Numbered from the stretch's first letter, positions 1 through 63,250 are shown. The stretch is 64,000 nucleotides of DNA from Blastocatellales bacterium (GCA_050249535.1 JBFWQI010000001.1:149541-213540); one strand, 5' to 3'. Translations and numbers: made by a program. The notes: generated by a model from the letters alone, not told the origin.

Positions 1-1930
1 GCGTGATATTACCGAGCAGAGGTTCGGGGCGGTCGCCGCCGGGCAGCGGCGCGTTGATGTTGCGACCACGCAGCTGATGCGCGCCCCTCCGCCAGGAGTA
101 CTGAGTCATAAGACGAAGATTCCCCGGCAACTGCTGCTGGAGGGCGATCGATGCCTGATAGACGATCGGCATCCGAAGATTCCTCTGGATCGTGATCAGG
201 CTCGGCGGAAGCGTGACTCCCAGACCGCCCGAGAACGGATCGGGATATCCCGGAGCGATGATGATCAGGTCGTTCTGCTGCTGACCGTTGACCCGCAGCG
301 CCTGTTCGATTGTTTCTGCTCCCAGCCAGTCGTAGAAGATTCCGGCCCCGCCCCGGATCGTCGTGTTGCCGCTCTTGACCGGAGACCATGCGAACCCGAA
401 TCGCGGAGCGAAATTGCTTCTGTCGTCGAGGTTAGTCTGAACTTCATGGCGCAGTCCGAAGCTCAGCGTCAGGCTCTTGGCCGCTCGCCAGTCGTCCTGA
501 GCGAACCAGCCGAACTGCGTCTGATTCAGATCGATCTCACCGGGTCCGCTGCGCCGCGTGTAGATGATCGGAAAGCCGATATTGAAATCCCGCAGACTGG
601 AAAAAATGAAGGTGCCGTTAAGATTCAGGAGCTCCTCGCTCTGAAACCGCGTATGCTCGAATGACGCTCCGGCTCGAAGCGAGTGGTTTCCCGCCGCGAA
701 ATCGACATTGTCCGAGAGGATCAGCTCCTGCGCGCGTCGCGTCGAATCGTTCTGAGCTCCGCCGGTATTGAAGGCGTTGAGCACCAGAATAGTCGGCTCG
801 TTCGAGAGCGAGTCGATCGATGTCCGAAACCAACGGGACTGGAACTTGATTTCATTGAACAATCTCCTGCCGAGGTTTCCCGAATCGGCGAAACGCAGCA
901 GTTCCTCCTCGGAGTCGCTCGTGTATCCGCGCTCGGGCAGATCGAAATTGCCGACACCCAGGTTGTTGCGTCGTGCTGTATTGCGCTGGAACTCGAAGCG
1001 CGAGGTGTGCGACGGGCGCAGCAGGTGTTCGAGCCGCGCCGTCGCGTTGAGCGTTCGTCCGGGCTGCCTGGCCTGCTCGAGGAATGTTCCGCCCGGCAGT
1101 GCGGCGACGATCGTTCTCGCCTCGAACGAGTTCTGACCGTCGGCCGACAGGAAGAGCGATGTCCTGTTTTTCCAGATCGGACCGCCGAGATCGAATGCGA
1201 AACGGCGGTGCTGCTCCGGCGCGCGATACGAGGCGAAGGCGTTGCGTCCGTTGAGCGATTCGTCGCGGAAGCCGAGGTTGATGCTTCCGTGCCACGCATC
1301 GACTCCCGGTTTGGTCAGGATGTCGACGCTCATGAAAGATGATCCGTGGCTCTCCGCGGCATAGGCATTGGTCCTGAATCGGATCTCGCGGATCTGGTTC
1401 TTCGGCGGCAGACGGCCGCCTCGAAATCCGTTGACGCTGAATGACGCTCCGGGGCCGGCCATCTGCCTGATCGCTTCCTCGAACTCGTCCGGATCGTCGG
1501 GCAACATTGCGATCTGCTCGGCCGATAATACGGTCGAAAAAGCGCTCCCGTGTCGATCGGTGCTCGATTCGCGCGGATCCCGCTCGATTGCAACCTCATC
1601 CTGGACCGCGGCGATCGCCAGTCTTATCTCCTGCCGGTTCTCGCCCGGCCTGATCGCGATCGGCCCCAGGCTCGTGGACTCGAAACCCGGCGCCGCCGCC
1701 TCGATCCTGACTTCACCGGTTTTGATTCCCCTGAATGTTGCCTGTCCGCTGCTGTTCGTCCTCGATGTCAGCTTCGTTCCAGCCAGCTTCACCTCCGCAT
1801 TCGGGATGGCCGCTCCGCTTGGATCCAGCACGGTCACGTTCAGTACGGCCTCCTGCGCCGGCCGGTTTTGAGCGACGACCGGAACGGTCACGAGAACAAA
1901 CATCGATAAAATTGAAAAAAATGTCTTCAT
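1..1930 (-). CDS. TonB-dependent receptor-like outer-membrane protein with an N-terminal carboxypeptidase-regulatory-like domain. It is partial: the C-terminus runs off the window start.
   Basis: I translated the minus strand from the ATG at 1930-1928. The product begins [68 protein letters not shown], which is a signal peptide followed by a CarbopepD_reg-like beta-sandwich. The frame stays open to position 1; I spot-checked the segment [13 protein letters not shown]. The gene is absent from the ORF track only because there is no stop codon inside the window. It resembles the complete paralog at 44675-48613. Confidence 0.65.
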
Positions 1931-1932
1931 CG

Positions 1933-2355
1933 CTAATCGATCTCTGAGTTCCCGGATTCCGGCTGGGCGCGGATCCCGATGATCCCGTGCGGGGCCGCGG
2001 AATCGACAGACATATTGAACCGGACCTTCATCCCCTCGTTCTTCGTCTCGGCGATGACCGTGATCTCATACTCCTCGGATGCCGCCACGCTGATCACCTT
2101 CAGCCCTCCCGACTGCTGATAGAAACCGAGGTCCTTCTCAGCATTCTCTTCGCTCCCGCCCCGGTCCCTGTGAAAAGCCTTCATCTTATTGATATCGCCT
2201 GAATTCAGGGCTTCGAGAAAGGCTGTGAAGGTCTTTCCGGCTGCCGTGGAGGGGATCGTGGCTTCGTTCTGCGCACCGGTAACCTTCGTTCCGACCATGA
2301 CGATCAAAGTCAGAGCGGCTGCAATGGTCATCGCATGTGCGATCAGTCGTTTCAT
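1933..2355 (-). CDS. Small secreted hypothetical protein (140 aa) directly upstream of the TonB-receptor gene and probably co-transcribed with it.
   Basis: The N-terminus is a signal peptide ([29 protein letters not shown]). The stop codon is 3 nt from the receptor start. I recognise no domain. Confidence 0.45.
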
Positions 2356-2376
2356 ATGTTTATCTCCTTCTCTTGT

Positions 2377-2657
2377 GTAACTACCCAGCTCACAGAGGGG
2401 AAAAGAAGAAATTAGACAGGATTTACAGGGTTAAGTCAGAGGGTATTGAGGCCCGTATTCACCGGCAAATGTACTTCGACTTTTTTTCGAACTCATTTTA
2501 TCCGTAACTGCTCAGCCTGTTCTGAGCCCGCTCCGCGGGCTTGCCCTCCAACGGAGGCTGTGCAGTTACTTTTATCCTTTGGTTTAATCCTGTAAATCCT
2601 GTCAAATCCTGTAAATCCTGTCTAATTTCTTCTTTCCTCCGAGGGCTGAGCAGTTAC
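2377..2657. mobile_element. MITE-like non-autonomous element, copy A (281 bp). It has about 70-bp imperfect terminal inverted repeats that begin GTAACTRCTCAGCC, with subterminal CAGGATTTA/GACAGGATTT tandem units. It is degenerate relative to copy B.
   Basis: The left arm is gtaactacccagctcacagaggggaaaagaagaaattagacaggatttacagg. The right arm is ...cctgtaaatcctgtcaaatcctgtaaatcctgtctaatttcttctttcctccgagggctgagcagttac, which is its reverse complement. A second copy lies at 32276-32498. The flanking 8-mers are tctcttgt and tcacctgt (6 of 8 match). The element is AT-rich and non-coding in a GC-rich genome. Confidence 0.55.
2504..2569. mobile_element. Nested 66-bp mini-MITE with the same termini (GTAACTGCTCAGCC...GGCTGTGCAGTTAC). 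It is inserted inside MITE copy A and flanked by a perfect 8-bp target-site duplication, TTTTATCC.
   Basis: Copy B reads cattttatccttgg at the homologous position. Copy A reads cattttatcc[66 bp]ttttatcctttgg. The direct repeat ttttatcc lies at 2496-2503 and 2570-2577. Confidence 0.5.
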
Positions 2658-2710
2658 TCACCTGTCAGTGTTATTTCAGATCGTCGCCCGCCGTTCAGGC
2701 CTTGCGACGA

Positions 2711-3607
2711 TCACTTCTTGACGAACTTTTCGGGTTTGAATTTCGGGTTGATCTCGATCTTTTTGATCTCCCATTCCTCGTTTGTCTCGCCCGCGATGCT
2801 GCGCGTCAGGCGGTGAGGAAAAGTGATTCCGCCGACTTCACGGAAATCGTCCAGAAACATCTGATATTCCACTTCCGGTTCCTTCGCGGCCTCGGCCTCG
2901 GACTCCCTGATGCTCTTTTCGATCTCTTCGCGCGAGCGGGCCGGTCCGGTCATGGTCCGTGAAATCATCCTCGGCTTTCGCCCCTGCCAGGTCATCATCA
3001 GCAGCCGATTCGACTTCTGTTCGATGAAGAGCCGGGTGTTGATGCCGAAGGAGCTGTTGACATTGATCACGTCGGCGTTTCCATCGGGCGATTCGGCCAC
3101 CCCGGCAAAGCTGTATTCGACGGGGATGTTTTCGGGTGTCCTGAGCAGCCAGCCGAGTATCAGGCGACCGAAATCGGTCTTCAATGAATTGAGTCTGATC
3201 TGCTCGCCGTTCGGTGAGTCGTCTCCGGGACGTTTGATCATGATCATCGCGCCGCCGGTTCCGCTGGTCTGCTGATCTGCCCAGGTGCTGTCGCCGACCA
3301 GGGCCTCGAGGCGGGTGAACTCGATGCCGGGCATCGGAGCCATCGTCTCAGTTCGCAGGATGCGATCCGGCAGTTGAAGGTCGATCTGGACCTCGCCGCT
3401 CATGTCGCGTCCGCCCATCATCCTGCGGTATCCAGCGATGACGCTCAGTCCGGCGATCGACTCGACCTTTTTGCCGCCGATCGCCGCCCGCGCTTTCGCC
3501 AGAATCTCGATGGCTTTCGTTTTCGGGTCCTGTGCCAGAGCCCCGGGCAGGATTTCGGTCACGGCAAATCCTGCCAGAAGAATTATCATCAGAATTTTCT
3601 CTCTCAT
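2711..3607 (-). CDS. Secreted hypothetical protein (298 aa) with an N-terminal signal peptide.
   Basis: The complete ORF begins [28 protein letters not shown] recognise no domain. Its N-terminus and 5' region are duplicated at about 7030-7270. Confidence 0.55.
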
Positions 3608-4081
3608 CTTTTCTCCAGTCTGATCGATTGCCGGCGAATTGCCGCCGTGTGGGAGGGATCATCTCTCAGAATACTACCCGAATGGTTAAGGCGGAGAAAA
3701 GAGATTGTTAAGGATGTAAAATTTCGATTTTTTTAATCGGATCGAGATAATTTCTATCAGTACCTCACTTCCACATCAAAATAAAAACATACGCCATCGA
3801 AACAGGTAACACCTTGGAGAGTCCATGGAATGACAATTGCCTCGTGTCATGTAAGAGGCCATAAACTGGGGAAATTTCCTGCTTGGGGCGTGAAATACCG
3901 CCAATTACTCAGGCCAAGTGGAAAATCAGCCAATTTATCCTAGCTTAAAACAACACTGTAATTTTCATGTTTGCTCAACGGATCAATATGTCTGAGTCGC
4001 GGAGAGAGAAGGGGTCCGGGATCCTGACTGAAAATCCCAAAAAGTCATGGATGGCACTCAAAAGAGGCCGGAGGAGGTTTT

Positions 4082-6949
4082 ATGAGTTATCGAGGGATGC
4101 TGAAATTGGCGGCTCCGATCAGTTTTTTGTTGATGCTGATGGCAGTTTTTCTACGGGTGAACTCAGCCCTGGCGCAAAATTCGACGATTCCGCCCGGCAC
4201 CTATACGGCGGTGGCGAGCGATATGGTGATCACCGCACTTGCCCAGCCCGGGGAATACCGGATCACATTAAAGGAGGACGGCAAATTTGTATACGGTTAT
4301 AACGTTCGCACTCTGAGCACGGGAATTTATGCGGTAAACGGGGACAATCTGGAATTCACCATGACCTGGGGAATTGGTGATTGCGCGGGCAAGAGCGTCT
4401 TCAAGTGGAGTCTGCAGGGAAACAGACTGAGCCTCGCGCCCGCGCCCGGCCAGACCTATTCCTGCCAGCTCATTCCGTGGCTGTCGGGGGCTTACTTCAA
4501 GACCGATCAGGTGGATAAGCTTTGGAAGAACATCGGCCCGACGGGCGGCAACATCCGTTCGCTGCTGGTCAAGGACACCAAAATATTCGCAGGAACTTAT
4601 GGGGGCGGCATTTTTTCGTCGGCCGATCAGGGGCAGAGCTGGAATGTCAAGGGGACATACAGAGGCGGTACGATCACGGCTCTGGCGGCGTTCAACGGCA
4701 ATCTGTACGCTGGAACCGAAAACAATATTATTCTGATTTCTCTGGATGAAGGCGAGACGTGGCAATTTCAGCAATGGTCGACAGGGGGGGCTCCGCCCAA
4801 CTTCACGCTATCGGATTTCGCCGAATTCAATGGAAAGCTCTATGCCGCGACGAGAGGGCAGGGCGTTATTCGTCTGACCGATAATCCGATTGTCTGGGAG
4901 AATTCCGGTACCACCGGCCTGACCGACCTGAACGCCACTTCGCTGGTGGTTGCGGGTGGGATGCTGTATGTGGGCACCGACGGCGGGGGAGTCTTTGTCT
5001 CCACGGATGGCAATATCTGGGCGCCGGCCAGCAACGGGATCACCTTCCCGCGCATTTCGACGCTGGCGGTGAGTGGCAATACAATTTATGCCGGCACTTC
5101 AGCAGGCACCCCCGCTACCAATGAAGTCTATTACACCCAGAACAACGGGCAGAACTGGACGCGCGTGGGGAACGGTCTGGCCGCCAGCTTTCAGGCGGGA
5201 TATCAGAACCAGGTATACGACCTGCTGCCGTTCGGAGGAAAGCTCTTTGCGGCCTCATCCAACGGAGTGATCGTCAATGAAGGGGCGAACTGGCGCGCGG
5301 TTTATCAGGGGACTTTCATCCCTTACTTTTATTCCCTGGCCGTGAGCGGGAACCAGATTTTCGCCGGCTCAGGCGGGTTTGGTAATGATGGCATATCCCG
5401 CTCGAGCGACGGCGGTACGACATGGAGCCAGGTCAACAATGGTCTCTATGCACGGAATGTCTCGGCGGTTCTAAAGGACAATGGCGTGCTGTACGTTGGA
5501 GTAAATGATGGGGCTTTCATCTCGACCAATGACGGTCAGACCTGGACGCGGACCAACATTCCCGGCCCGACGGTAGCTAACTTCCTGGCCTTTGACGGCA
5601 AGGTCCTGGCCGGAACGACATTCGGAGTCTATTCCAGCTCCAACCAGGGGCAGTCCTGGACGCGGACGAGCAACGGACTGGCATCGGGACAGGTCAATCG
5701 AATCGTTCCGCTGGGAAACACGCTTTTCGCATCGGTCTATAATGCGGGCGTTTATCGTTCGACCGACAGCGGGGCGAACTGGACATCGGCCAATAACGGC
5801 CTCGCCAGTCCGAAGGTCTGGGACCTGGTTGCAATGAACGGCAATCTGTTCGTCTCGACACTGGATTCCGGAGTATTGAGATCGACTGATCAGGGACAGA
5901 GTTGGTCGGCGGCGCCGAACAGCGGGCTGCCGTCAGGCCAGATTCAGGCGATGGCTGTGAGCGGCAACATCCTTTTCGCAGCCGTTATGGAGCAGGGCAT
6001 CTATTATTCGATCGATAATGGAGGCGCCTGGGTGAAATCCACCGGTGGGTTCAGTAATCCGTATGTGGCCCGACTTCATGTGAGTGGCGGAAATATATAT
6101 GCAGCCGGCGGCTTCGGGATCGGGGTCATGCGTTCGACCGACAACGGTCAGAACTGGGGGTTATACAATGCCGGCTTCGATTCGGGTTACGGCCTCGCAC
6201 TTTTCGTCAGCGGGTCGACGCTCTACGCCGGGGGATTGAATGGTCTTTACGCCAGTACATGCCTGGTCAATCCTGAGGTGACGGTCTCGGCCGCAGATTA
6301 CTCCGTGGGTTCGATCGTCGAGAAATCGATCGTGGCCGCCTATGGAGTCCAGCTGGCGACAGGGATCGAGATTGCAACTTCGCAGCCGCTGCCGACCTCG
6401 CTTGCGGGAACGACCGTCAAGGTCCGCGACAGCAATGGCGTCGAACGCCTGGCGCCGTTGTTCTATGTTTCACCGGACCAGATCAATTATGAAGTCCCGG
6501 CTGGAACGGCCACCGGGCCTGCGACTGTAATGATCTTGAATGGAGACGGCTTTGCGGCGATCGGCAGCATGCATGTCAAATTGTCGGCGCCTACGATCTT
6601 CACAAACAATTACAGTGGTTCGGGACCTGCCGCAGCGCTCGATGCCTTCACATATGCGCCCGGCCCGTTCAACGCCACTCAATCAAACGGGCAGCCCAAT
6701 ATCCTGGCGGTTTTCGGGACGGGGCTTGGAGGCGACGCCACCGAAGTCTCGGGCGATGTCAGCGGCAGCGTCACTACGCGGCTCAACGGGAATGTGATTG
6801 TTACGGCGTATGCCGGGAACGCTCCGGGATATGTCGGCCTCAACCAGTACAACATAATTCTGCCCGAGGGGATCGGCACCGGCACCTATTCACTGACGTT
6901 CGCGCGAGGAGGCGTCACAAGCAACACGGTTACGATTTCAATCCGTTGA
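4082..6949 (+). CDS. Secreted BNR/Asp-box (sortilin/GH74-like) repeat protein with a C-terminal Solibacter-type domain (Soli_cterm), 955 aa.
   Basis: A GGAGG ribosome-binding site sits 6 nt upstream. There is a signal peptide. More than 10 S-x-D-x-G-x-T/S-W Asp-box motifs are present (SADQGQSW, SLDEGETW, TQNNGQNW, SSDGGTTW, STNDGQTW, SSNQGQSW, STDSGANW, STDQGQSW, SIDNGGAW, STDNGQNW). The C-terminal 250 aa (VSAADYSVGSIVEKSIVAAYG...PLFYVSPDQINYEVPAGTATG...) matches the C-terminus of the 2089-aa protein at 14931-21200. I recall this pattern as the TIGR-defined Soli_cterm domain of Solibacter. Confidence 0.75.
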   Translation: MSYRGMLKLAAPISFLLMLMAVFLRVNSALAQNSTIPPGTYTAVASDMVITALAQPGEYRITLKEDGKFVYGYNVRTLSTGIYAVNGDNLEFTMTWGIGDCAGKSVFKWSLQGNRLSLAPAPGQTYSCQLIPWLSGAYFKTDQVDKLWKNIGPTGGNIRSLLVKDTKIFAGTYGGGIFSSADQGQSWNVKGTYRGGTITALAAFNGNLYAGTENNIILISLDEGETWQFQQWSTGGAPPNFTLSDFAEFNGKLYAATRGQGVIRLTDNPIVWENSGTTGLTDLNATSLVVAGGMLYVGTDGGGVFVSTDGNIWAPASNGITFPRISTLAVSGNTIYAGTSAGTPATNEVYYTQNNGQNWTRVGNGLAASFQAGYQNQVYDLLPFGGKLFAASSNGVIVNEGANWRAVYQGTFIPYFYSLAVSGNQIFAGSGGFGNDGISRSSDGGTTWSQVNNGLYARNVSAVLKDNGVLYVGVNDGAFISTNDGQTWTRTNIPGPTVANFLAFDGKVLAGTTFGVYSSSNQGQSWTRTSNGLASGQVNRIVPLGNTLFASVYNAGVYRSTDSGANWTSANNGLASPKVWDLVAMNGNLFVSTLDSGVLRSTDQGQSWSAAPNSGLPSGQIQAMAVSGNILFAAVMEQGIYYSIDNGGAWVKSTGGFSNPYVARLHVSGGNIYAAGGFGIGVMRSTDNGQNWGLYNAGFDSGYGLALFVSGSTLYAGGLNGLYASTCLVNPEVTVSAADYSVGSIVEKSIVAAYGVQLATGIEIATSQPLPTSLAGTTVKVRDSNGVERLAPLFYVSPDQINYEVPAGTATGPATVMILNGDGFAAIGSMHVKLSAPTIFTNNYSGSGPAAALDAFTYAPGPFNATQSNGQPNILAVFGTGLGGDATEVSGDVSGSVTTRLNGNVIVTAYAGNAPGYVGLNQYNIILPEGIGTGTYSLTFARGGVTSNTVTISIR

Positions 6950-7164
6950 AATTGTGACCGGCTCAATTTCGTTACCTGATTCAAGGGCAGGGCCATCTGG
7001 TTAAGACCAGATGGCCTTGCCTTTCCTGTTTCTCCGATCGCCGCCGGCAGCTTGCAGGCTATCTCGGCCGCCTTCGATTTCGGGTTTTGATCCAGATTGC
7101 CGGGCAGGATTTCGATCACAGTGAATCCGGCCTGAATACATGTTTTCAGTATTTTCTCTCGCAT
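6886..7164 (-). pseudogene. Remnant N-terminal fragment of a paralog of the 2711-3607 gene. About 50 codons are conserved before the sequence diverges, and the promoter-proximal DNA is duplicated.
   Basis: MREKILKTCIQAGFTVIEILPGNLDQNPKSKAAEIACKLPAAIGE aligns with [45 protein letters not shown]. At DNA level, 7020-7215 is about 75% identical to 3440-3640, and the shared motif ttgttaaggatgtaaaattt occurs at 3700-3720 and 7262-7281. The remainder of the ORF has no similarity. Confidence 0.4.
6988..7030 (+). terminator. Rho-independent terminator-like hairpin after the BNR gene.
   Basis: The sequence is agggccatctgg-ttaaga-ccagatggcct followed by the T-rich tract tgcctttcctgtttc. It lies 40 nt past the stop codon. 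Confidence 0.4.
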
Positions 7165-7365
7165 CTTTTCTCCAGCTTGATCAATTGACAGCGAAATATA
7201 GCCGTTCATGAGGAGCATCTCACTGAACTTTATCTGAACGGTAAAAACCTGGGGCAGATTTTGTTAAGGATGTAAAATTTGCAGCGGACGGGAAACGGCG
7301 CCGAATCGCTGTGGTATGATGCGCGGGTCGAGGGGCCCTGAAGAGCCCGGAAATCGCGGTGAATT

Positions 7366-9949
<2,584 letters not shown>

Positions 9950-10075
9950 GCATGGAGTCCCGCATGGAGTCCCGTATGGAGTCCCGACATAAGGCGGGGT
10001 ATTCAGTGATCAAACGAAGCTCTCATTGATAACCAAATAACCCGCCTGAATTCGGGACTCCATACGGGACTCCTT
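9950..10075. repeat. Nested inverted repeat built from 12-bp YATGGAGTCCCG tandem units, immediately after the response-regulator stop codon.
   Basis: The sequence reads gcatggagtcccgcatggagtcccgtatggagtcccg ... cccgcctgaattcgggactccatacgggactcc. The outer stem is about 21 bp and the inner stem aggcggg/cccgcct encloses a loop of about 50 nt. Confidence 0.5.
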
Positions 10076-10433: not shown

Positions 10434-12641
<2,208 letters not shown>

Positions 12642-12673
12642 AAATATGGCTCAACTGCTATAATTGCCATTGT

Positions 12674-14860
<2,187 letters not shown>

Positions 14861-14930
14861 AACCGCATATTTTCAGTCCACCCCGGGAAGTAAACTTCAT
14901 TCTCATCCCCATAAGATCAGGAGATAGTCA

Positions 14931-17900
14931 ATGTCATACCGTCATTATGCCTGGGTTCTGTTGATACTGTTGTCGCCGGCAGTGGTGAATGGCGTCTCGG
15001 TTCTGGCGGAATTTCAGGAAGAGAGGGACCGCGGGGCGGGGCGGCCGGCTATGGAAGGATCGCCGGTCGCACGGCGACGTGACGAGCGAAGGAAGGTCAA
15101 GTCTCCGCCGAAACGACGGCTGTCGGAAATCCTGACGGGGCAGGTCGAGCCGGGAGAGAGGCCGCGAACAGATACCGGGCCCGGCGATGCGAACCGTGTG
15201 AACCGGCTGATGGAAAAGGCTGAAGCGCGTTATGACCAGCCACGTGAGGCGATGGAGTTCTTCAGGCTCAAGCGACTGCCGGAGGGGATGAAGAATATTC
15301 CGATCGAAAAGTATCTCGAAGCGGGCGAGCGGATGAAGGGCATGGCGCGATACTCGTCGCTGCTCGATCGCAAGATGGGCGCGGAAGAGTCGCTGAATCT
15401 GACCGCCGGGGGCGCTCAGGCGGGCGCCTGGCAGTCTCTCGGGCCGGGAAACATCGGCGGGCGGACGCGGGCTCTGGTGATCAACCCGCAGAATCCCAAT
15501 GTCATGTACTCAGCGGGCGTTTCGGGCGGTGTCTGGAAGACGGTCAATGCAGGCGCGACGTGGACGCCGATCGCGGATCTGGTTGGCAACATCACTGTCA
15601 GCTCGATCGCCATGGAGCCGGGAAGTCCCGATACGCTCTACATCGGCACCGGCGAGGGAGTGGCGATCTTTTCGCGCGATACCCAGGGCGATTTCAGGGG
15701 CGCCGGAATTCTGAAGACGACCGACGGCGGTCAGACGTGGACCAGACTCGAGTCAACCGCCGGCGAAGACTTCCATTTCGTCAACGATCTGGTCATCAGC
15801 CCCGTCGACAAGAACCGGATCTATGCCGCAACCAGATCCGGGATCTGGCGCTCGACGGATGCGGGCGTCTCGTGGACGAATATCCTGACGCCCAGAAACG
15901 ATTTCAACGAGACGGTCACCGGCGGTTGCCTCGACCTGGCGATCAGAACCGATGTCCAGTCCGATTACGTCTTCGCATCGTGCGGGACTTTCGAGAAGGC
16001 TTCCGTCTATCGCAACACTGACGCCTCGGGAGGAGGCCTGTGGACGATTGTTCTGTCGGAGGAGGGGATGGGACGGACGGCGCTGGCGATCTCACCCTCG
16101 AACCAGAGCATCGTATACGCGCTGGCTTCGAGCGTCGAGTTCGGTCCTTACGAGCTGGCGCTGTATGCCGTCTTCAGGTCGGACAACGGCGGCGACGGTT
16201 GGAATGCCGTGCTCCGCAACACGAGCCAGAACAAGCTGAGCACATCGATCCTGTCGATTCCGCAACTGGCGCTCGGCAGCGATTGCGGATCCAGCGAATT
16301 CGACGACTTCTTCGGGCAGGCCTGGTACGATCTGGTGATCGCGGTGGATCCGGTCGATCCCAACCGGGTCTGGGCCGGAGGCATCGACATCTTCCGATCG
16401 GATGACGGCGGTCTGAGCTGGGGGCTGGCCGGGCCGTCATACGCCAACACCAACTTCGATCTGGGGCCGATCCATCCGGATCATCATGTCATCGTCTTTC
16501 ATCCGCAGTATGACGGAACATCGAATCAGATAATGTATGTCGGCAACGACGGCGGGTTGTACCGTACCGACAATGCTCGCGCCGGAGTCGTCCTCAATCC
16601 GGCGGCGATCTGCGGTCCGATCAACCCCGGCGTCAAATGGATGAGCATCAACAACAATTACGGAGTGACGCAGTTCTATCACGGGACGGCGATGCCCGAT
16701 GGGAAGACGTTTTTCGGCGGAACGCAGGATAACGGTACGGTGCTCGGGACGGAATCTGCCGGCATCGACGGGTGGAAGGAGATCAATGGAGGGGACGGAG
16801 GCTTTGTCGCGGTCGATCCGACGGATCCGGCGACACTCTATGCTTCGTTCACCGGTATCTCGTTCAGAAAGAGCACCGACGGCGGATTGTCGTTCGGGAG
16901 CGCGACATACGGCATCGGTTCCGGCGACACGGGATTCTTCATCACGCCGTATGTCATGGATCCGAGCGAGCCCCAGGTTCTGTGGACCGGCGGCGATTAC
17001 ATCTGGCGGACGACCAGCGGCGCGTCGCGATGGGAGCGCGCCAGCGCCCTGACGGCCGGAACGACCAAGGTCAGCGCGATTGCCGTCGCTCCGACAGATT
17101 CCAATCGCGTAATGGTCGGAATGGGCGACGGGTATATTCTGCGAAACCAGTCCGCGCTGACCTCCGATTTCAATACGACCTGGCAGTTTAGCCGGCCGAG
17201 GGACGGCTACGTCTCATCGCTGACCTTCGATCCGCTCAACCGCGACATCGTGTATGCCACATACTCGACCTTCGGCGGGAAGCACGTCTGGCGTTCGATC
17301 GACGGCGGCGTGATCTGGACGAGCATCGACGGCTCAGGAAGCGGTGCGATACCGGATGTGCCGGTTCACTCGCTCGCCGTCGATCTGTCGAACACGTCGC
17401 GACTATACCTGGGCACCGATGTCGGGGTCTTCATCTCGAACGACGGCGGGGCGAACTGGGCCGTCGAGAACACCGGATTCGCCAATGTGATAACCGAGAC
17501 GCTGCAGATCAGAGTCATCAACGGCGTGACGATGCTCTTCGCGTTCACCCACGGGCGCGGAGCATGGCGGGTTCCGATCAACAATTCGGGATGCGGCTAC
17601 AGTCTCTCGAAATCCACGATCAGGGTCGGGGCCGCCGGTACGACGGGCAACTTGAATGTCAGCGCCGCACCCGCCGGGTGTAACTGGATGGCGTCATCCA
17701 ATGCCAACTGGCTGAGCGTCAGCGGTTCGGGCAGCAGCGACGGTGCAGCCGCCTGGTCGGTCGAGGAGAATACGGGCTTCGATTCCCGGACAGGCACCGC
17801 GACCATTGCCGGACGATCGTTCATTGTCATCCAGGACGGGCGAAGGGATGACGCCGTTCCCGTCGTGGCGATCACGTCGCCTTCCGGCGGACCTGTGACC

Positions 17901-31056: not shown

Positions 31057-34165
<3,109 letters not shown>

Positions 34166-38394: not shown

Positions 38395-38466
<72 letters not shown>

Positions 38467-38467
38467 A

Positions 38468-39463
38468 TTATCCTCCTGCCGGCCTCTCTACGTGGCCGCC
38501 GAATTTATGGCGCATGGCCGAGAGGACCTTTTCGGCATAGGTATGTTCCTGACGGGATCTGAAACGGGTGAAGAGCGAGGCTGCCAGGACATCGGCCGGC
38601 ACGGCCTCCTCGATCGCCGCCTGGATGGTCCAGCGGCCTTCGCCGGAGTCCTGGACGAAGCCAGAATAGTTCGAGAGGCTCGGATTTTCGAGCAGCGCCA
38701 TGGCCGTCAGGTCGAGCAGCCACGATCCGACGACACTGCCTCGCCGCCACACCTCCGCGATATCGGCCAGGTTCAGTTCGAACCGGTGTTCCTCGGGCAA
38801 CTCGGTCGAGACGGCATTGCGCATGATGTCGAAACCCTCGGCATAGGCCTGCATGAGCCCATATTCGATGCCGTTATGGACCATCTTGACGAAATGGCCT
38901 GAGCCCGAGGGGCCGCAGTAGAGGTATCCGTCCTCGGCAGTTCTGCTGAAATCGGCTGGTGCGGATTCGCGCCCCGGAGTGCGTTCTATTTCGCCGCGTC
39001 CCGGGCTGAGGGTTTTGAAGATCGGCTGGAGGTGGTCGAAGACCTCTTTCTCGCCTCCGATCATCAGACAATAACCGCGTTCGGCGCCCCAGATGCCCCC
39101 GCTCGTGCCGACGTCGACGTAATGGATACCTTTCTCGCTCAATGCTTTCGCGCGCCTGACGTCATCCTTGAAATGAGAGTTCCCGCCGTCGATCACGATA
39201 TCGCCGCCGGACATGAAGACCGACAGCGTATCGACTGTCTGTTCGGTCGCCGCTCCGGCGGGCACCATGACCCAGATCGCCCGGGGCTTCTCCATCTTCT
39301 CGACCAGATCCTCGATCGTTCGCGCGGCGATCGCGCCCTCCGATTCGATCTGTTTGACGTTGTCCTGATTGAGATCGAAGACGAAGCACTGGTGCCCGTC
39401 ACGCATCAGACGGCGCACCATGTTCGCTCCCATGCGCCCCAAACCTATCATTCCTAGCTGCAT
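38468..39463 (-). CDS. gnd: 6-phosphogluconate dehydrogenase (decarboxylating), short NAD(P)-dependent form.
   Basis: The Rossmann motif is [11 protein letters not shown]. Catalytic-domain motifs are present ([14 protein letters not shown]). Confidence 0.85.
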
Positions 39464-48646: not shown

Positions 48647-51600
48647 ATGAACCACCTCAACACGCCTCGAGGAGGCGATGAAAATCCGTATGTCGGCCCC
48701 CGGCCTTTCGAGACCGGGCGACGGCTCTTCGGCCGGGACAGGGAGACGGAGGATCTCTACTACCTGCTCAGCGCTGAGCGGATCGTGTTGCTCTATTCGC
48801 CGTCGGGCGCAGGCAAGAGTTCGCTGATTCAGGCCGGCCTTGTGCCGCGCCTGGCGGGCAAGTTCGATGTCTGGGGACCGACGCGCGTCAATCTGCAACC
48901 CTCCGGCGAGTTGCCCGCGGGAGTCAATCGTTATGTCAGGAGCGCCATGCTCGGGCTGGAGCAGGGCATACCCGAATCGCGCCGCCGCCCGGAGTCTGAG
49001 CTGGTCGGGCTGTCGCTGGCGGATTACGTCAGCGGGCGTCCGCGCAGGCGATCCGCGCCGGACAACATTGTGATCATCTTCGATCAGTTCGAGGAGATAC
49101 TGACCGTCGATCCGCTGGCGGTCGAGGCGAAGAAGGAGTTTTTCAATCAGCTCGGCGAGCTTCTGCTCGATCCCCGCATCTGGGCGCTGTTCGCGCTGCG
49201 AGAAGACTATCTGGCTCCGTTCGACACGTACGCTGAGATGATTCCGACGCACCTCAGAAACCGGTTTCGACTGGATCTGCTCGGGCGTGAGTCGGCGCGC
49301 GAGGCGATCGTCAATCCGGCTCGCGACGGCGGCCGCGAATTCGCCGATGAGGCCGTGGAAAAGCTGGTCAGCGATCTGGCGACGGTCAAGGTGCAACAGC
49401 CCGACGGGAAGTTCATAGACCAGCTCGGACAGCACGTCGAACCTCTTCAGCTTCAGGTCGTCTGCCGCCGGCTCTGGGAGAGGATGCCGGATGAAGACAG
49501 GCGCATCGATCTCGAGGATGTCCTCGAACTCGGCAACGTGACCGAGGCGCTGTCAGGTTATTACGCCGGTGAAGTCGGAAAACTGGCCGCGGGCGATGAC
49601 CGGACCGCTCGCGAGATCAGGGAATGGGTCGACGAAAAGCTGATCACTGCGGACGGCATCAGGTCGCAGGTGCTGCGCGGCGCCGGACGGAGCGAGGGGC
49701 TCGACAACGATCTGATCGCGCGGCTGATCAACACCCACCTCATCCGCGCCGAGCAGCGCGTCGGAGCGGTCTGGTACGAACTCGCCCATGACCGCCTGAT
49801 CGCTCCGATCAGAGAGGACAATCGCCGGTGGTTCGATTCGCATCTCCATCAGGTTCAGAAACTCGCCAAGATCTGGGGGGCGCAGGATGAGCCGCCGGGG
49901 CTTCTGCTGGCGGGGAAGGAGCTCGAGGAGGCCCGGCAATGGGCCGCCCGAAACGATCGGATTCTAGATCTCGAGCGCCGGTTCATCGAAAAATCGACCG
50001 TCCGTCAGGAGCAGATAGAACGCGAGCGCCGTCAGGCGATCAGGCAGCGCAGAATGCTCCGAATCGTGAGCGTGCTGACGGTCCTTGCGATCGCGGCTGC
50101 GATTGTGGCGTTCTGGCAGATGCGTGTGGCTGAACAGAAGGAGCGGGATCTGCAGGCAAGTCTCAGGACTTCGCGCGGTCTGCTCTACGTCGCCAGTCAG
50201 TTGCAGGCATGGGAAGCGTACGACGCCAGACAGTATTCCCAGGCCGCCGAGTATCTGGAAAGCTCCATGCCGGACGCGACGGTTGGAGGTCCCGATGTCA
50301 GAAGTTACGACTGGTATCTGCTCTGGCGGTTGATGCACGACGAAAAGCAGACTCTGGCCGGCCATCGTTCCAATGTCACCTCTGTCGTCTTCTTTCCCGA
50401 CGGGCGGACTGCGGCGAGCGGTGATGCCGGCGGCGAACTGAGAGTCTGGGATACGGCTTCCGGAAAAGAAGTGCGGACGATTGCGGATGCCTCCGATTCG
50501 ATCAGCTCGATGGCGCTATCCGGCGATGGAAGAATGCTGGCTGTCGGCGGAACGAAAGCAGTAAGGCTCTTCGAGACAACGAACTGGAAGATGATCAGGG
50601 AAATTGCGGCCATTCAGTCCCCGGCCCTCTCGCTTGCATTCGCGACCGGCGGGAAGATGCTGGCCTCAGGGCATGCCGACGGCACCGTCGTGCTCCGGAA
50701 TCCGGGAGATGGAAGTGAGCTTCAACCGCGCCTTGAAAAACATGACGCCGGCGTGATCGCGGTTTCATTCTCGCCGGACGGCAATTTCCTGGCCTGTGGC
50801 GATCTGGACGGCACAGTAAAGGTGTGGGATGTCGGGAACGGAAATCGACGGCAGGAGGCCTTGCTCCTGCTTCAGACCACGCTCACCTCGCTCGCATTTT
50901 CGCCGGACGGCAGCAAGCTGGCGATCGCATACGGAGCCGGCATCATCAGCCTGCGGAATGCGGCTGACCGCCGCGAAATATGGAAGACAACAAACGGCGG
51001 AGCTATCATCAACACGATACGGTTTTCGCCCGACGGTAAACTGCTCGCCTCCGCGTCGGTGGACGGGAGCATCAGGCTGATCGATGCGGCGACAGGCACT
51101 GAAGCGCGGGCGCTCAAGGGCCATCTCGCCAGCGTCAGATCCTTTGCCTTCTCTCCCGATGGGCGCTCGCTGGTCAGCGGAAGCCACGATCATACCGTCA
51201 GGATCTTCGATCTGACGGCGCTGCCTGAATATCCGAAACTTTCCGGACACGACAAGGACGTCATTGCCGTTCGCTATTCCGCCGACGGTCGCATGATCGC
51301 GAGCGGAAGCGAGGACGGGACGGTCGCCCTGTTCGATGCCGGGAGCCGCAAGTTGCGCTGGCGATCAGAAGACCAGGGATCGCCGGTCAATGCGATAGCG
51401 CTCAGTCCTGACGGGAGCCGTCTGGCAGGCGGCGCGGGCGACGGGAAGCTCCGCTTGTGGGATGCCGCGAACGGATCGACGCTCTGGCCTCAGCCGCAGG
51501 TCCACGGCGAAAGCATCAAGTCCGTCGCTTTTTCAACGGACGGAAAGTCGCTGGCCAGCGGTAGCGATGACGGTTCGATCGTGATTCACGCGGCGTCTGA

Positions 51601-52150
51601 CGGGAAGGTCGAGCGGGAGCTCAAAGGCCACGAAGGCGCGGTCATTGCGGTTGCTTTCTCGCCCGACGGCACTACGCTCGCAAGCGGAGGCGAGGACGGA
51701 TCGATCCGTCTTTGGGACTTCACAAAAGGAAACCTGATCAGAAAGCTCGACGGGCACAAGGTGCCGGTCAGTTCGCTCAGCTTCTCGATGAGCGGAACTT
51801 TACTTGCGAGCGGCAGCGACGATCAGACGGTCAGGCTGTGGGATGTTCGGAGCGGCGTCGCAGTCCGCTCGCTCGAAGGGCATAGTCTGTACGTGCTGGC
51901 AGTCGACTTCACGCCGGACGAGAGGACGCTGGCCAGCGTCAGCGACGGCGCGATATGGCTGTGGGACGTCGGAACCGGCAAACTGTTGCGAAAGATCAAA
52001 GAGGAGTTCGAGTCCGTCACGTCGGTCTCATTCTCGCCCGACGGGCGAACGCTGGCGGGCGGCATCAGCAACGGCAGTATCCATCTCTGGCCCGGCGCCC
52101 GGGACGAGCAGATCACGCGACAGTGCGGCAGGTGCGCATCGAAACGATGA
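48647..52150 (+). CDS. STAND-type P-loop NTPase (nSTAND-like, NPYxG...FFGRD family) followed by a predicted transmembrane helix and about 14 WD40 repeats (1167 aa).
   Basis: The N-terminal motif is NPYVGPRPFETGRRLFGRDRETEDLYYLL. Walker A is SPSGAGKSS at residues 51-59 and Walker B is IVIIFDQFEE at about 141-150. A hydrophobic helix (IVSVLTVLAIAAAIVAFW) lies at about residues 472-490, nt 50054-50117. Repeated WD40 units of the form GHxxxVxSVAFSPDGxxLASGSxDGTVRLWD run from about nt 50320 to 52140. Confidence 0.8.
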   Translation: MNHLNTPRGGDENPYVGPRPFETGRRLFGRDRETEDLYYLLSAERIVLLYSPSGAGKSSLIQAGLVPRLAGKFDVWGPTRVNLQPSGELPAGVNRYVRSAMLGLEQGIPESRRRPESELVGLSLADYVSGRPRRRSAPDNIVIIFDQFEEILTVDPLAVEAKKEFFNQLGELLLDPRIWALFALREDYLAPFDTYAEMIPTHLRNRFRLDLLGRESAREAIVNPARDGGREFADEAVEKLVSDLATVKVQQPDGKFIDQLGQHVEPLQLQVVCRRLWERMPDEDRRIDLEDVLELGNVTEALSGYYAGEVGKLAAGDDRTAREIREWVDEKLITADGIRSQVLRGAGRSEGLDNDLIARLINTHLIRAEQRVGAVWYELAHDRLIAPIREDNRRWFDSHLHQVQKLAKIWGAQDEPPGLLLAGKELEEARQWAARNDRILDLERRFIEKSTVRQEQIERERRQAIRQRRMLRIVSVLTVLAIAAAIVAFWQMRVAEQKERDLQASLRTSRGLLYVASQLQAWEAYDARQYSQAAEYLESSMPDATVGGPDVRSYDWYLLWRLMHDEKQTLAGHRSNVTSVVFFPDGRTAASGDAGGELRVWDTASGKEVRTIADASDSISSMALSGDGRMLAVGGTKAVRLFETTNWKMIREIAAIQSPALSLAFATGGKMLASGHADGTVVLRNPGDGSELQPRLEKHDAGVIAVSFSPDGNFLACGDLDGTVKVWDVGNGNRRQEALLLLQTTLTSLAFSPDGSKLAIAYGAGIISLRNAADRREIWKTTNGGAIINTIRFSPDGKLLASASVDGSIRLIDAATGTEARALKGHLASVRSFAFSPDGRSLVSGSHDHTVRIFDLTALPEYPKLSGHDKDVIAVRYSADGRMIASGSEDGTVALFDAGSRKLRWRSEDQGSPVNAIALSPDGSRLAGGAGDGKLRLWDAANGSTLWPQPQVHGESIKSVAFSTDGKSLASGSDDGSIVIHAASDGKVERELKGHEGAVIAVAFSPDGTTLASGGEDGSIRLWDFTKGNLIRKLDGHKVPVSSLSFSMSGTLLASGSDDQTVRLWDVRSGVAVRSLEGHSLYVLAVDFTPDERTLASVSDGAIWLWDVGTGKLLRKIKEEFESVTSVSFSPDGRTLAGGISNGSIHLWPGARDEQITRQCGRCASKR

Positions 52151-52173
52151 TCGGAATACCTGGAGAATAGAAG

Positions 52174-54843
52174 ATGGCGGATCAGTCGAAATTTCTGCAT
52201 TTCAACGGCATCAATGGAGCGACCGGCGATTACGGCATTCCACCGATGACCGGCGAGGAACTGGCCGGCTTCATCAAAGGTGAGTCGGCTCCCGAGAACC
52301 TTGCCGAGCTCAAGTTTCGCCGGCAGCAGGCCTCGCAGAGCCATTACGGCGTCAAGGAAGGCGTCGATCCGAAGAAACTCGACGAAGCCGGGTGGGGAGT
52401 GATCTTCGCGCACGATGCCGCGCCCGGGATCAGGGAGGCGCTCAAGCCTCTGCTCGACCTTCGCCAGGAGCAGGCCGGAACGCGGTTTCGCATTTACGAG
52501 GGCGGAAACGGGTATCGGGTCGGGAAGGACACCAAGAGTTCATTTCTTGCCAGGCACGGCGCCGGGCCCGGCCCTGCCGATCCGGACAAGGTGCCTTATT
52601 ACCTTCTGATCGTCGGCGGTCCTGATGTCATCCCCTATCGTTTTCAGTCGCAACTGGACGTCCAGTACGCCGTCGGCCGCATTCATTTCGAGACTCTCGA
52701 GGATTACGCCGTTTATGCTCAGAGCGTGGTCGCGGCCGAAAACGGCGGGATAAAGCTGGCGCGAAGGCTGAGCTTTTTCGGCGTGACGAATCCGGATGAT
52801 CCGGCCACCGGAGCTTCCGAACAGTCTCTGGTCAGCCCGTTGTATGCATATTTCAAGGACCGTCCCGGATGGCAGGTCGAAGCGATTCTCAAGGAGCAGG
52901 CCGGCAAGTCGAAGCTGGCTGAGTTGCTGGGAGGAGGCGCCACTCCGGCGCTGCTCTTCACTGCCAGCCACGGCATGGAGTTCCCTCTCGGGCATGCCAT
53001 GCAGATTCCGCACCAGGGGGCACTGCTTTGCAGCGACTGGCCGGGCCCGAAGAATTTTCACGGAGCGATCCCTGAAGACTTCTACTTCGCCGGTGACCAT
53101 CTGGCGAGTGACGCGAGACTGGCGGGACTGATCAGCTTCCATTTCGCCTGTTATGGCGGAGGCACTCCTGAACTGGACGAATTCGCCCAGCAGGCATTCA
53201 AGGGGCGCCAGGCCATCGCGCCGAAGGCTTTCCTGTCTGGTCTGCCCACACGGATGCTGAGCCACCCCAAAGGCGGGGCGCTGGCCGCGATCGGTCATGT
53301 CGACAGGGCATGGTCGACATCATTCGCATGGTCTGGGGCGGGCGCCCAGACGACGGTCTTCGAGAGCACTATCCAGCGCCTGATGGATGGCCATCCGGTC
53401 GGCTCGGCGCTCGAATATTTCAACGAAAGATATGCCGAGTTATCGACCGTTCTCAGCGATGAACTGGAAGAGATCCAGTATGGAAAGATCGTCGAACCGT
53501 ACGAACTGGCAGGCATGTGGACGGCCAACAACGATGCGCGCGGTTACATGATCCTTGGAGACCCCGCAACACGATTGCCGCTTGCGGCCGACGGGGAAGA
53601 ATCTCGTGAACGGCAGGCGATCGAGATCGTTCCATATACCGCGGGCAACGCGACGGCTCCGCCGCCGGTTGCTTCCGCGCCGGCTGATAGACCGCCGGCC
53701 GAACCCGGCCCCGCGAGCTTCAGCGTTCCCACAACGGCCGGGGACGATGTTCTCTTCAGCGCTTTTCACCCGCGGGCGCTCGATGTCGGAGAGTGGCAGA
53801 AACTGCTGATATACGCTCATCTGCAGGAAGCCCTCGATGCGATCAAGACCGACTCAGGGCAGGTGCTGGGATTGAAGTCGCCCGACTATCGACAGTCTGA
53901 GGCCAAAGCGACCGCCAAGATCGCCCATGGGACCGAAATCACACTCGTCCCGCAGGCGGATGGACTGGAATTCAAGCCTCAAAGCGCCACGCTGACGTGG
54001 TCAGGCGCATGGCAGCGTGCGGATTTTGAAATGGCCGCGACCGACAAGCGTGCCGGCCATGTCGTGACGGGAACGGTCGCATGCTATGTCGGCCCGTTGC
54101 TGATCGCCCAGATCAGGTTGCCGGTGGTAGTCAAGCGCCCCGGGGCTGCAATCGAACCGGAGGTCGACGGGCAGGCGGTCGAATCGGCCAAAATGTATCA
54201 GGCTGTCTTCGCCTCCTATTCACACGCCGACACGCAGGTGGTCGAGGCGGTCGAAGCCGCCTACAAAGCCCTCGGAATGGATTACCTGCGCGATGTGATG
54301 ACTCTCAAGAGCGGGCAGAAATGGTCCGATCAGCTGCTCAAGATGATCGACGATGCAGACATCTTCCAGCTCTTCTGGTCGGACAAGTCCAGCGCGTCAC
54401 CGTATTGCGAGCAGGAGTGGCAGTACGCGCTGAGCCTGGCAGAGCGCAAGGGGCCGGCCTTCATCCGGCCGGTCTATTGGCAGAAGCCGATTCCGAAGGT
54501 GCCGGAGGGACTTCGCGCGCTCCACTTCGCGCCGGTCGATTTCAGCCGTTTCATCGCTCCCGCCGCGAAGCCGGAACAGCCTGCGATTACAGCGCCGGTC
54601 GAAATTGACGATGAGCTCAAGAAACTGACCGTTTCGACATACACCGTATCCGATCCGGCGAATCCTCAAAATCCGCGACTCGTAGCGAGGTCGCGCATCA
54701 CGCTCGATGGCGATGTCGAGAACTTTGTGCTGGAGAATCTGACTGCTGACGATGAGAAATACCTTGAGCTTCACCATCGGATGTCGGGAGAGGCCGCGTC
54801 TGCGCGTCTGACATATATTGAAAAGCTCGCGAAGAATCGTTAG
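52174..54843 (+). CDS. Fusion protein (889 aa): an N-terminal clan-CD caspase/gingipain-like cysteine-peptidase-like domain, a proline-rich linker, a beta-rich middle domain and a C-terminal TIR domain.
   Basis: Candidate catalytic His266 in LLFTASHGMEF and Cys326 in ISFHFACYGGG show the clan-CD HG...AC spacing. The TIR signature runs from about nt 54190 to 54540: YQAVFASYSHADTQVVEAVEAAYKALGMDYLRDVMTLKSGQKWSDQLLKMIDDADIFQLFWSDKSSASPYCEQEWQYAL. It includes the conserved Glu of TIR NADases in the CEQE motif. Confidence 0.7.
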   Translation: MADQSKFLHFNGINGATGDYGIPPMTGEELAGFIKGESAPENLAELKFRRQQASQSHYGVKEGVDPKKLDEAGWGVIFAHDAAPGIREALKPLLDLRQEQAGTRFRIYEGGNGYRVGKDTKSSFLARHGAGPGPADPDKVPYYLLIVGGPDVIPYRFQSQLDVQYAVGRIHFETLEDYAVYAQSVVAAENGGIKLARRLSFFGVTNPDDPATGASEQSLVSPLYAYFKDRPGWQVEAILKEQAGKSKLAELLGGGATPALLFTASHGMEFPLGHAMQIPHQGALLCSDWPGPKNFHGAIPEDFYFAGDHLASDARLAGLISFHFACYGGGTPELDEFAQQAFKGRQAIAPKAFLSGLPTRMLSHPKGGALAAIGHVDRAWSTSFAWSGAGAQTTVFESTIQRLMDGHPVGSALEYFNERYAELSTVLSDELEEIQYGKIVEPYELAGMWTANNDARGYMILGDPATRLPLAADGEESRERQAIEIVPYTAGNATAPPPVASAPADRPPAEPGPASFSVPTTAGDDVLFSAFHPRALDVGEWQKLLIYAHLQEALDAIKTDSGQVLGLKSPDYRQSEAKATAKIAHGTEITLVPQADGLEFKPQSATLTWSGAWQRADFEMAATDKRAGHVVTGTVACYVGPLLIAQIRLPVVVKRPGAAIEPEVDGQAVESAKMYQAVFASYSHADTQVVEAVEAAYKALGMDYLRDVMTLKSGQKWSDQLLKMIDDADIFQLFWSDKSSASPYCEQEWQYALSLAERKGPAFIRPVYWQKPIPKVPEGLRALHFAPVDFSRFIAPAAKPEQPAITAPVEIDDELKKLTVSTYTVSDPANPQNPRLVARSRITLDGDVENFVLENLTADDEKYLELHHRMSGEAASARLTYIEKLAKNR

Positions 54844-54873
54844 CCGGATCAGTAATTCTGAAGGGATGATTAG

Positions 54874-56965
<2,092 letters not shown>

Positions 56966-56979
<14 letters not shown>

Positions 56980-63056: not shown

Positions 63057-63250
<194 letters not shown>

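Follow-up and report, generated by a model that had tools for sequence, protein, structure and literature searches.

ISDge4 of Deinococcus geothermalis belongs to the ISBst12 group of the IS66 family, encodes a single 449-aa transposase, and has the published inverted repeats GTGACTACTCAGCA / GTAACTGCTCAGCA and an 8-bp direct repeat, CCTCGATG (PMC12898284). We were led to this element by a full-text literature search with the terminus of the repeats described below, in which the remaining matches were primers. Bacterial MITEs in general, such as the IS982-derived ones of Cardinium and MITEPsy1/2 of Pseudomonas syringae, are short and non-coding, have the termini of an IS family, are flanked by target-site duplications, and lie between genes or nested in other repeats, and the elements described here resemble them in all these respects. 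Another kind of small repeat, REP/REPIN, consists of multicopy, dispersed intergenic palindromes, some of which are found, as inverted copies, on either side of a small nuclease-type gene; the gene of the REPIN system is RAYT, a Y1 HUH transposase.

We analyzed a 64,000-nt stretch of DNA from a Blastocatellales bacterium (GCA_050249535.1, JBFWQI010000001.1:149541-213540; hereafter, the window; sequences outside it carry L numbers). The first-pass annotation had reported here two copies of a MITE, one of them with a mini-element inside, and both copies, A and B, were recovered with the same coordinates and sequences (Table 1). The 14-mer terminus GTAACTGCTCAGCC occurs with no more than one mismatch at 2504 (+), 2556 (-), 2644 (-), 32276 (+), and 32485 (-); at up to three mismatches, there are 15 matches, compared with 3.5 +/- 1.9 in shuffled sequences, and 15 was reached in none of 100 shuffles. 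The elements show the generic features of MITEs, being small (66, 223, and 281 bp), non-coding, and bounded by terminal inverted repeats and a target-site duplication. They contain short spurious ORFs only, and the public annotation calls no gene there. In approximately 80 kb of the contig, there are two long copies and one mini-element.

Table 1. Coordinates of the MITEs, target sites, reference elements, and hairpin-associated genes (positions in the window unless an L number is given)
Feature	Position	Strand	Detail
MITE copy A	2377..2657	none	281 bp with the nested element, 207 bp when it is removed
Left terminus, copy A	2377..2390	+	GTAACTACCCAGCT; decayed, 3 mismatches to GTAACTGCTCAGCC
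Right terminus, copy A	2644..2657	-	GTAACTGCTCAGCC, exact
Left flank, copy A	2369..2376		TCTCTTGT
Right flank, copy A	2658..2665		TCACCTGT
Left ACAGGATT-repeat arm, copy A	2411..2432	+	lacks one 19-nt double unit relative to copy B
Right ACAGGATT-repeat arm, copy A	2586..2621	-	
Nested mini-MITE	2504..2569	none	66 bp; termini GTAACTGCTCAGCC / GTAACTGCACAGCC
Target-site duplication TTTTATCC, left	2496..2503		directly abuts the 66-bp element
Target-site duplication TTTTATCC, right	2570..2577		directly abuts the 66-bp element
MITE copy B	32276..32498	none	223 bp; termini GTAACTGCTCAGCC / GTAACTACTCAGCC
Left ACAGGATT-repeat arm, copy B (putative passenger hairpin)	32312..32347	+	
Right ACAGGATT-repeat arm, copy B	32427..32462	-	
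Target-site duplication TTTTACTT, copy B left	32268..32275		perfect, 8 bp
Target-site duplication TTTTACTT, copy B right	32499..32506		perfect, 8 bp
Host heptamer-repeat hairpin	32184..32527		AGTAGAA/AGTAAAA units; split by copy B, which sits in one arm
Intact heptamer hairpin	12533..12653		12602-12632 is an exact empty site for copy B
Intact heptamer hairpin	38397..38478		38434-38464 is a second exact empty-site reference
Heptamer hairpin in flank, L129	970-1067		
Heptamer hairpin in flank, L144	4310-4365		
Heptamer hairpin in flank, L144	5817-5911		
Geobacillus pHTA426 element (L122)	14107-15741		termini GTATCTATTCAGCC / GTAACTATTCAGCC; GACGAGTT twice
ISDge4 (L131)	630-2082		termini GTGACTACTCAGCA / GTAACTGCTCAGCA; GAAGAAAA twice
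Chlorohelix element (L132)	648-2151		termini GTAACAATTCAGCC / GTAACAGTTCAGAC; AATTATTT twice
Acaryochloris element (L133)	510-2060		termini GTTACTGCCCAGGC at both ends; CTTCATTC twice
Leptolyngbya element (L136)	545-2119		termini GTAACTACTCAGGT / GTAACTACTCAGGC; ATCAGCGG twice
B. thuringiensis element (L134)	626-2255		termini GTAACTACTCAGCT at both ends; no duplication
Arm-bracketed GxxExxY gene, L035	2165-2640		
Arm-bracketed GxxExxY gene, L060	2165-2615		
Arm-bracketed GxxExxY gene, L074	1780-2300		
Arm-bracketed GxxExxY gene, L076	1-170		
Arm-bracketed GxxExxY gene, L094	2018-2434		
Arm-bracketed GxxExxY gene, L054	1490-1950		
Arm-bracketed GxxExxY gene, L137			
Arm-bracketed GxxExxY gene, L140			
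Arm-bracketed GxxExxY gene, L141			

As a reference set, we used six full-length single-ORF IS66-like elements from four phyla, whose ends were read directly. All six have termini of the form GTAACTnCTCAGsC, and five are flanked by perfect 8-bp duplications. The 12 termini of these elements are identical to the MITE termini at 10-13 of the 14 positions, and the positions that are invariant across the 12 (1, 2, 5, 10, 11, and 12) are all kept in the MITE. For ISDge4, the MITE terminus matches the published repeat at 13 of 14 positions (13/14 and 12/14 for GTAACTGCTCAGCA and GTGACTACTCAGCA, respectively), and the copy on pDGEO01 is flanked by an 8-bp duplication, GAAGAAAA. However, ISDge4 is 1453 bp long and encodes its own transposase, whereas the window elements are non-coding and span 66-281 bp, and copies A and B, unlike ISDge4, carry what is most likely a foreign hairpin. 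Similarly, the elements of Geobacillus kaustophilus pHTA426 (annotated as 'IS66-like element ISGka4 family transposase'), Chlorohelix, Acaryochloris, Leptolyngbya, and B. thuringiensis share GTA(A/T)CTATTCAGCC and similar termini with the MITEs, and perfect 8-bp duplications flank all but one of the five (there is none at the B. thuringiensis copy), but they are autonomous, 1.5-1.65 kb long, and free of subterminal repeat arrays. The Geobacillus transposase scores as DDE_Tnp_IS66, zf-IS66, and NF033517. ISKpn15 (L143), taken as a control for classical three-ORF IS66 elements, turned out to be a single-ORF, more distant relative; with its termini GTAAGTATTCACC and 8-bp duplication TCGTGATA, it extends the terminus pattern instead.

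Since both sequence-level hallmarks of the ISBst12 group, the matching termini and the 8-bp target-site duplication, are found in the window elements, and coding capacity is absent, we classify copies A and B and the 66-bp element as ISBst12-type (single-ORF IS66) MITEs. This agrees with the earlier view that the elements are non-autonomous, end in 14-bp inverted termini, and transpose with an 8-bp duplication, and the single-ORF IS66/ISBst12 group would gain a non-autonomous branch; no earlier description of an IS66/ISBst12-derived MITE was found in the searchable literature. The window contains no transposase of this kind, as had been stated (tblastn with the Geobacillus IS66/ISBst12-type transposase, 0 matches); with this query, none was detected in L001-L121 or in 19 viral loci either, and no autonomous ISBst12-type element is present in the window or its flanking contig sequence (7.3 kb and 9 kb). 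We infer mobilization in trans by a transposase encoded elsewhere in the genome.

The nested insertion in copy A provides direct evidence of transposition with an 8-bp target-site duplication. The 66-bp element is placed between two copies of the octamer TTTTATCC, as originally claimed, and the octamer is single at the homologous site in copy B (32411-32418). The interior of the element is a G+C-rich stem-loop (GCCCGC..GCGGGC) without CAGGATT repeats, and only the termini and a few adjacent bases are common to it and copies A and B. Rather than a derivative of these copies, as had been proposed, it would more aptly be named a second MITE family within this IS group. Scanning metagenomes (JGI) for GTAACTRCTCAGCCNNCRGAGG yielded four matches, among them two real mini-MITEs with the same termini, one flanked by TTGGCAAG twice (L126, 3639-3740) and the other by AAAAATTG/AAAAACTG (L123, 2624-2733). 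Both have a G+C-rich internal stem and resemble the 66-bp element in design. The remaining matches, a solitary end (L124) and a match in a coding region (L125), were uninformative. With the extended-terminus pattern, neither further copies of the A/B type nor a full-length IS were found in the JGI metagenomes, and there were 0 matches in viral contigs. Natural nested insertions of this kind indicate that approximately 14 bp of terminus suffices for mobilization with an 8-bp duplication.

Copy B interrupts a hairpin of AGTAGAA/AGTAAAA heptamers. When copy B and one octamer are deleted, the result is CTTTCTACTTTTTACTTTCTACTTTCTACTT, a 31-mer that is identical to segments of two intact heptamer hairpins in the window (Table 1). 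The flanks of copy A, TCTCTTGT and TCACCTGT, match at six of eight positions (binomial chance about 0.004) and are a decayed target-site duplication. The source is metagenome-assembled, and short-read contigs break at these repeats, so the two loci might be suspected to result from segmental duplication, recombination, or mis-assembly rather than transposition. We find this hardly credible: A and B are similar precisely up to the termini and no further, there are perfect 8-bp duplications and exact empty sites, and the junctions of copy A with the adjacent gene and of the nested element are identical in the Logan assemblies of SRR21707643, SRR27751815, and SRR27422803. Because these three runs were assembled independently, the junctions are not an assembly artefact.

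Short-read contigs typically break at repeats. Logan contigs from three or four runs (L128 and L130 at their ends, L165/L166 and L167 at their starts) break inside the elements, at constant points 1-30 nt into the MITEs or 13 nt into the 66-bp element, which suggests that further copies exist elsewhere in those metagenomes. A check for insertion polymorphism between strains, proposed along with the first description, gave filled sites or repeat breaks in the Logan contigs of three runs, and no empty allele was seen. The filled and empty sites could serve as clean strain-typing markers in this uncultured, probably acidobacterial lineage. The AT-rich target preference that had been put forward holds only weakly, in that TTTTATCC and TTTTACTT fit it but other members of the group used GACGAGTT, ATCAGCGG, TTGGCAAG, and CCTCGATG. 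Both fresh insertions in the window (2496-2503 and 32268-32275) lie inside other palindromic elements, at TTTTAYYY, and may reflect a transposase preference for AT-rich or hairpin DNA, or mere tolerance of insertion there.

Terminal inverted repeats of about 70 bp had been described for both copies; the repeats are present, but in copy B the arms are longer, 85 nt, with 85% complementarity and a predicted fold of -72.9 kcal/mol (z = -17.4). The ACAGGATTTACAGGATT unit has seven matches in the window, compared with 0.05 expected. The internal CAGGATTTA/GACAGGATTT subterminal repeats of copies A and B had been regarded as candidate transposase-binding sites. Multiple transposase-binding sites are found at the ends of Mu, Tn7, and IS21, and the 70-85-bp repeats could, by analogy, be the true ends of an unseen full-length transposon, consistent with the symmetry of the arms from the terminus through the repeat array. 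However, the repeats are absent from all six full-length ISBst12-group elements, whose inverted repeats extend over only about 14-16 nt and which have CAGGATT arrays at none of their ends. Furthermore, the 14-bp termini alone were enough for the transposition of the 66-bp element, L126, and L123, array-less mini-elements that are flanked by fresh duplications, unlike what would be expected if repeat arrays were a required part of the ends, as in the Mu, Tn7, or IS21 type.

The ACAGGATT(T/A/G) repeat hairpin inside the MITEs also occurs as a stand-alone intergenic module. Its 18-mer GACAGGATTTACAGGATT is present at at least 120 loci in species-representative genomes, compared with an estimated 17 or so expected by chance. 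The hosts, among the matches listed, are Verrucomicrobiota, Kiritimatiellia, Acidobacteriota, Chloroflexota, Desulfobacterota, Bacteroidota, Gammaproteobacteria, Bacillota (including Pelotomaculum isolates), Planctomycetota, and the archaeon Methanoperedens; the 18-mer is also found in 19 IMG/VR contigs. By simple alignment, about half of the listed loci contain a hairpin, with (T)AGACAGGATTnACAGGATTnACAGGAT followed by a loop and the inverted copy. Only 27 of the 140 listed matches (19%) fall inside ORFs, compared with 79% of random positions. At the 120 listed loci, the GTAAC terminus with up to two mismatches was seen eight times, that is, at about the chance rate (some six expected, by estimate), and only at L048 does an ISBst12-like terminus adjoin the hairpin.

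This exception, from an unrelated Chloroflexota MAG (JAIOAS010000080.1; L048, 2785-3003), contains two direct copies of AGTCAAG+GTAACTATTCAGCC; the second copy encloses a ACAGGATT hairpin, is flanked by GAGTCAAG twice, and has a degenerate right terminus. L048 reads as a second, independent composite of an ISBst12 end and a hairpin, which speaks for the longer repeats as true ends, and the hairpin might, to some extent, be functionally connected with the ISBst12 group. Nevertheless, given the chance-level occurrence of the terminus elsewhere, the array-less relatives, and the arms that, at five listed loci, bracket a gene of another kind instead (see below), we consider it unlikely that the repeats are transposon ends, and the subterminal CAGGATTT repeats probably do not serve for transposase binding. 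Because the hairpin occurs independently of the termini and the full-length elements lack arrays, copies A and B can be read as composites in which the CAGGATT-repeat hairpin is most likely a passenger. As a matter of method, what looks like a long inverted repeat with subterminal repeats can be a composite, in which a captured palindrome is joined to true ends that are short. A and B differ from bacterial MITEs in general in that most of their length would be a passenger hairpin that is independently present across phyla.

If the hairpin were itself the mobile unit, A and B would have spread as members of the dispersed-hairpin class, and the GTAAC termini would be incidental remnants of separate IS insertions. 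The hairpins are abundant and intergenic, and this genome has many other repeat-armed hairpins, as that account would predict; it is very unlikely all the same, as A and B share the termini, the spacing from termini to arms, and a homologous centre, as expected of one composite unit. Moreover, the duplication and the exact empty site of copy B lie outside the GTAAC termini, and the unit that moved is therefore bounded by these termini.

Altogether, we regard it as likely that A, B, and the 66-bp element are ISBst12-type MITEs mobilized in trans, with A and B carrying a captured passenger hairpin. A DDE transposase of the ISBst12 group, encoded elsewhere in the genome, would recognize the approximately 14-bp termini, GTAACTnCTCAGCC, and insert the element by an 8-bp staggered cut, the repair of which would yield the 8-bp duplication. 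At some stage, a separate hairpin module would have become enclosed between two ISBst12-type ends and would now be carried along. Copy A, with its decayed left terminus and decayed duplication, would be the oldest insertion; the 66-bp element would then have entered the central loop of A, at TTTTATCC. Copy B would have inserted into the arm of the heptamer hairpin, at TTTTACTT.

Without the 66-bp element and one octamer, copy A aligns to copy B at 180 of 227 columns. The right end of A is identical to the left end of B at 32 of 32 positions, and the left end of A matches the right end of B at 27 of 33. For the centres, alignment in the same orientation gives 71 of 84 matching positions, compared with 44 of 94 when reversed. 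Thus, the end types are swapped between the copies (2377-2421 / 2613-2657 against 32276-32320 / 32454-32498), with the orientation of the centre kept. Such ends swapped around a common centre imply that the centre was inverted relative to the ends, and the long inverted arms would offer the substrate: after the element was duplicated, arm-arm recombination would have flipped the central segment.

The passenger palindrome points to a widespread, unnamed hairpin class that is linked to GxxExxY genes. At five listed loci (L035, L060, L074, L076, and L094), ACAGGATT arms directly surround a gene of approximately 125 aa, and the bracketed genes score as GxxExxY (TIGR04256) / PDDEXK_3 (PF13366). Neighbour clustering around the 120 listed hairpin loci revealed no enriched gene family except GxxExxY. 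PF13366 is listed as a family of function unknown that occurs in mixed bacterial and archaeal clades (PMC3424549). The GxxExxY gene of L054, elsewhere in that locus, is bracketed by arms of a different unit, GGAAACCAG.

We also inspected six plasmid GxxExxY genes chosen without regard to hairpins. Those of Gemmatirosa, Sphingomonas, and Bernardetia are bracketed by inverted arms of tandem units, and the cassette on the Sphingomonas plasmid is inserted between fabD and fabG. The Treponema gene has a shorter inverted repeat, and direct repeats flank the genes of Persicobacter and a Fusobacteria isolate. Flank similarity, inverted or direct, was at or above the 99th percentile of 1500 random segments for six of seven GxxExxY genes. 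The tandem arm units seen were ACAGGATT(n), AGTAGAA/AGTAAAA, CTTCAGTCC, CGCGAAGG, CACAGAGA, and GGAAACCAG, and the units of the GxxExxY cassettes differ between lineages. The arrangement looks like a mobile cassette that has gene-less hairpin relatives.

The passenger hairpin resembles REP/REPIN sequences in being a dispersed, intergenic, multicopy palindrome that is occasionally found around a small nuclease-type gene. Unlike in the REPIN/RAYT system, however, the flanked gene belongs to GxxExxY / PF13366, of the PD-(D/E)XK type and not Y1 HUH (no RAYT gene was seen beside the hairpins), the arms are made of 7-12-nt tandem units, one unit is common to several phyla and an archaeon, and mobility is putative. 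More speculatively, and with considerable doubt, the hairpins could constitute an undescribed cross-domain class of palindromes, the gene-less partners of GxxExxY cassettes, which the nuclease spreads or maintains, much as in a REPIN/RAYT-like system, and one of which hitch-hiked in an IS66-type MITE. If so, the hairpin inside the MITE would gain a second route of spread. The GxxExxY nuclease may mobilize the hairpins, or its gene may simply insert into them.

No paper describing this hairpin class was found in the literature searched, a full-text search with the hairpin unit returned one irrelevant primer match, and the whole window gave 0 matches in Rfam at the gathering score. Two other identities for the hairpin units were dismissed by reasoning only: CsrA-sponge-like CAGGAU repeats, given that the units are paired in the hairpin and present in an archaeon, and sigma-70 TTGACA boxes, given the pairing, the archaeal occurrence, and the absence of a matching -10 element. 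In our view, the hairpin class is a more intriguing lead than the MITE.

Copy A lies between the stop of ORF 2711-3607 (-) and ORF 1933-2355 (-), within an apparent two-gene unit. The element is situated 21 nt upstream of the ATG of the latter and ends 8 nt from the Shine-Dalgarno sequence of that gene, and most of the spacer is filled by the MITE. A consensus scan for promoters and terminators around copy A returned nothing above shuffled sequences inside the element. Copy B is placed between the convergent ORFs 31138-32181 (+) and 32522-34165 (-), the former corresponding to ORF 31057-32181, for which the public gene call starts at 31138. Based on the predicted folds, the hairpins of A and B could terminate or stabilize transcripts or expose them to processing. 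The products of neighbouring genes have Pfam matches to the CarboxypepD_reg/OMP beta-barrel, Sortilin/BNR, and NHL-repeat families. This gene content is typical of Acidobacteriota and, with a protein identity of 67% to a Blastocatellia MAG, weakly supports a probable acidobacterial origin.

Other repeats and gene clusters were observed in the window and its flanks. There are six AGTAGAA/AGTAAAA heptamer hairpins in approximately 80 kb of contig, all intergenic, two of them inside a cbb3 oxidase gene cluster just past the window end. The window itself has four kinds of gene-less, repeat-armed hairpins, including those at 9966-10073 and 63089-63209, which are built of the 12-nt unit CATGGAGTCCCG and of CATTT-type heptamers. 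A run of four large genes at 48647-59014, whose products have Pfam matches to nSTAND1+WD40, Peptidase_C25/TIR_2, CHAT+SIR2_2, and nSTAND1, resembles an island of defence or NLR-like genes. Between its two nSTAND genes, DNA identity is 72-75% (48683-49543 against 57011-57871). Finally, a repeat of approximately 220 bp (3504-3724 and 7061-7280, 71-76% identity), which ends in the common motif GTTAAGGATGTAAAATTT, covers the 5' end of ORF 2711-3607 (-) and that of ORF 4082-6949 (+), extending slightly past each.
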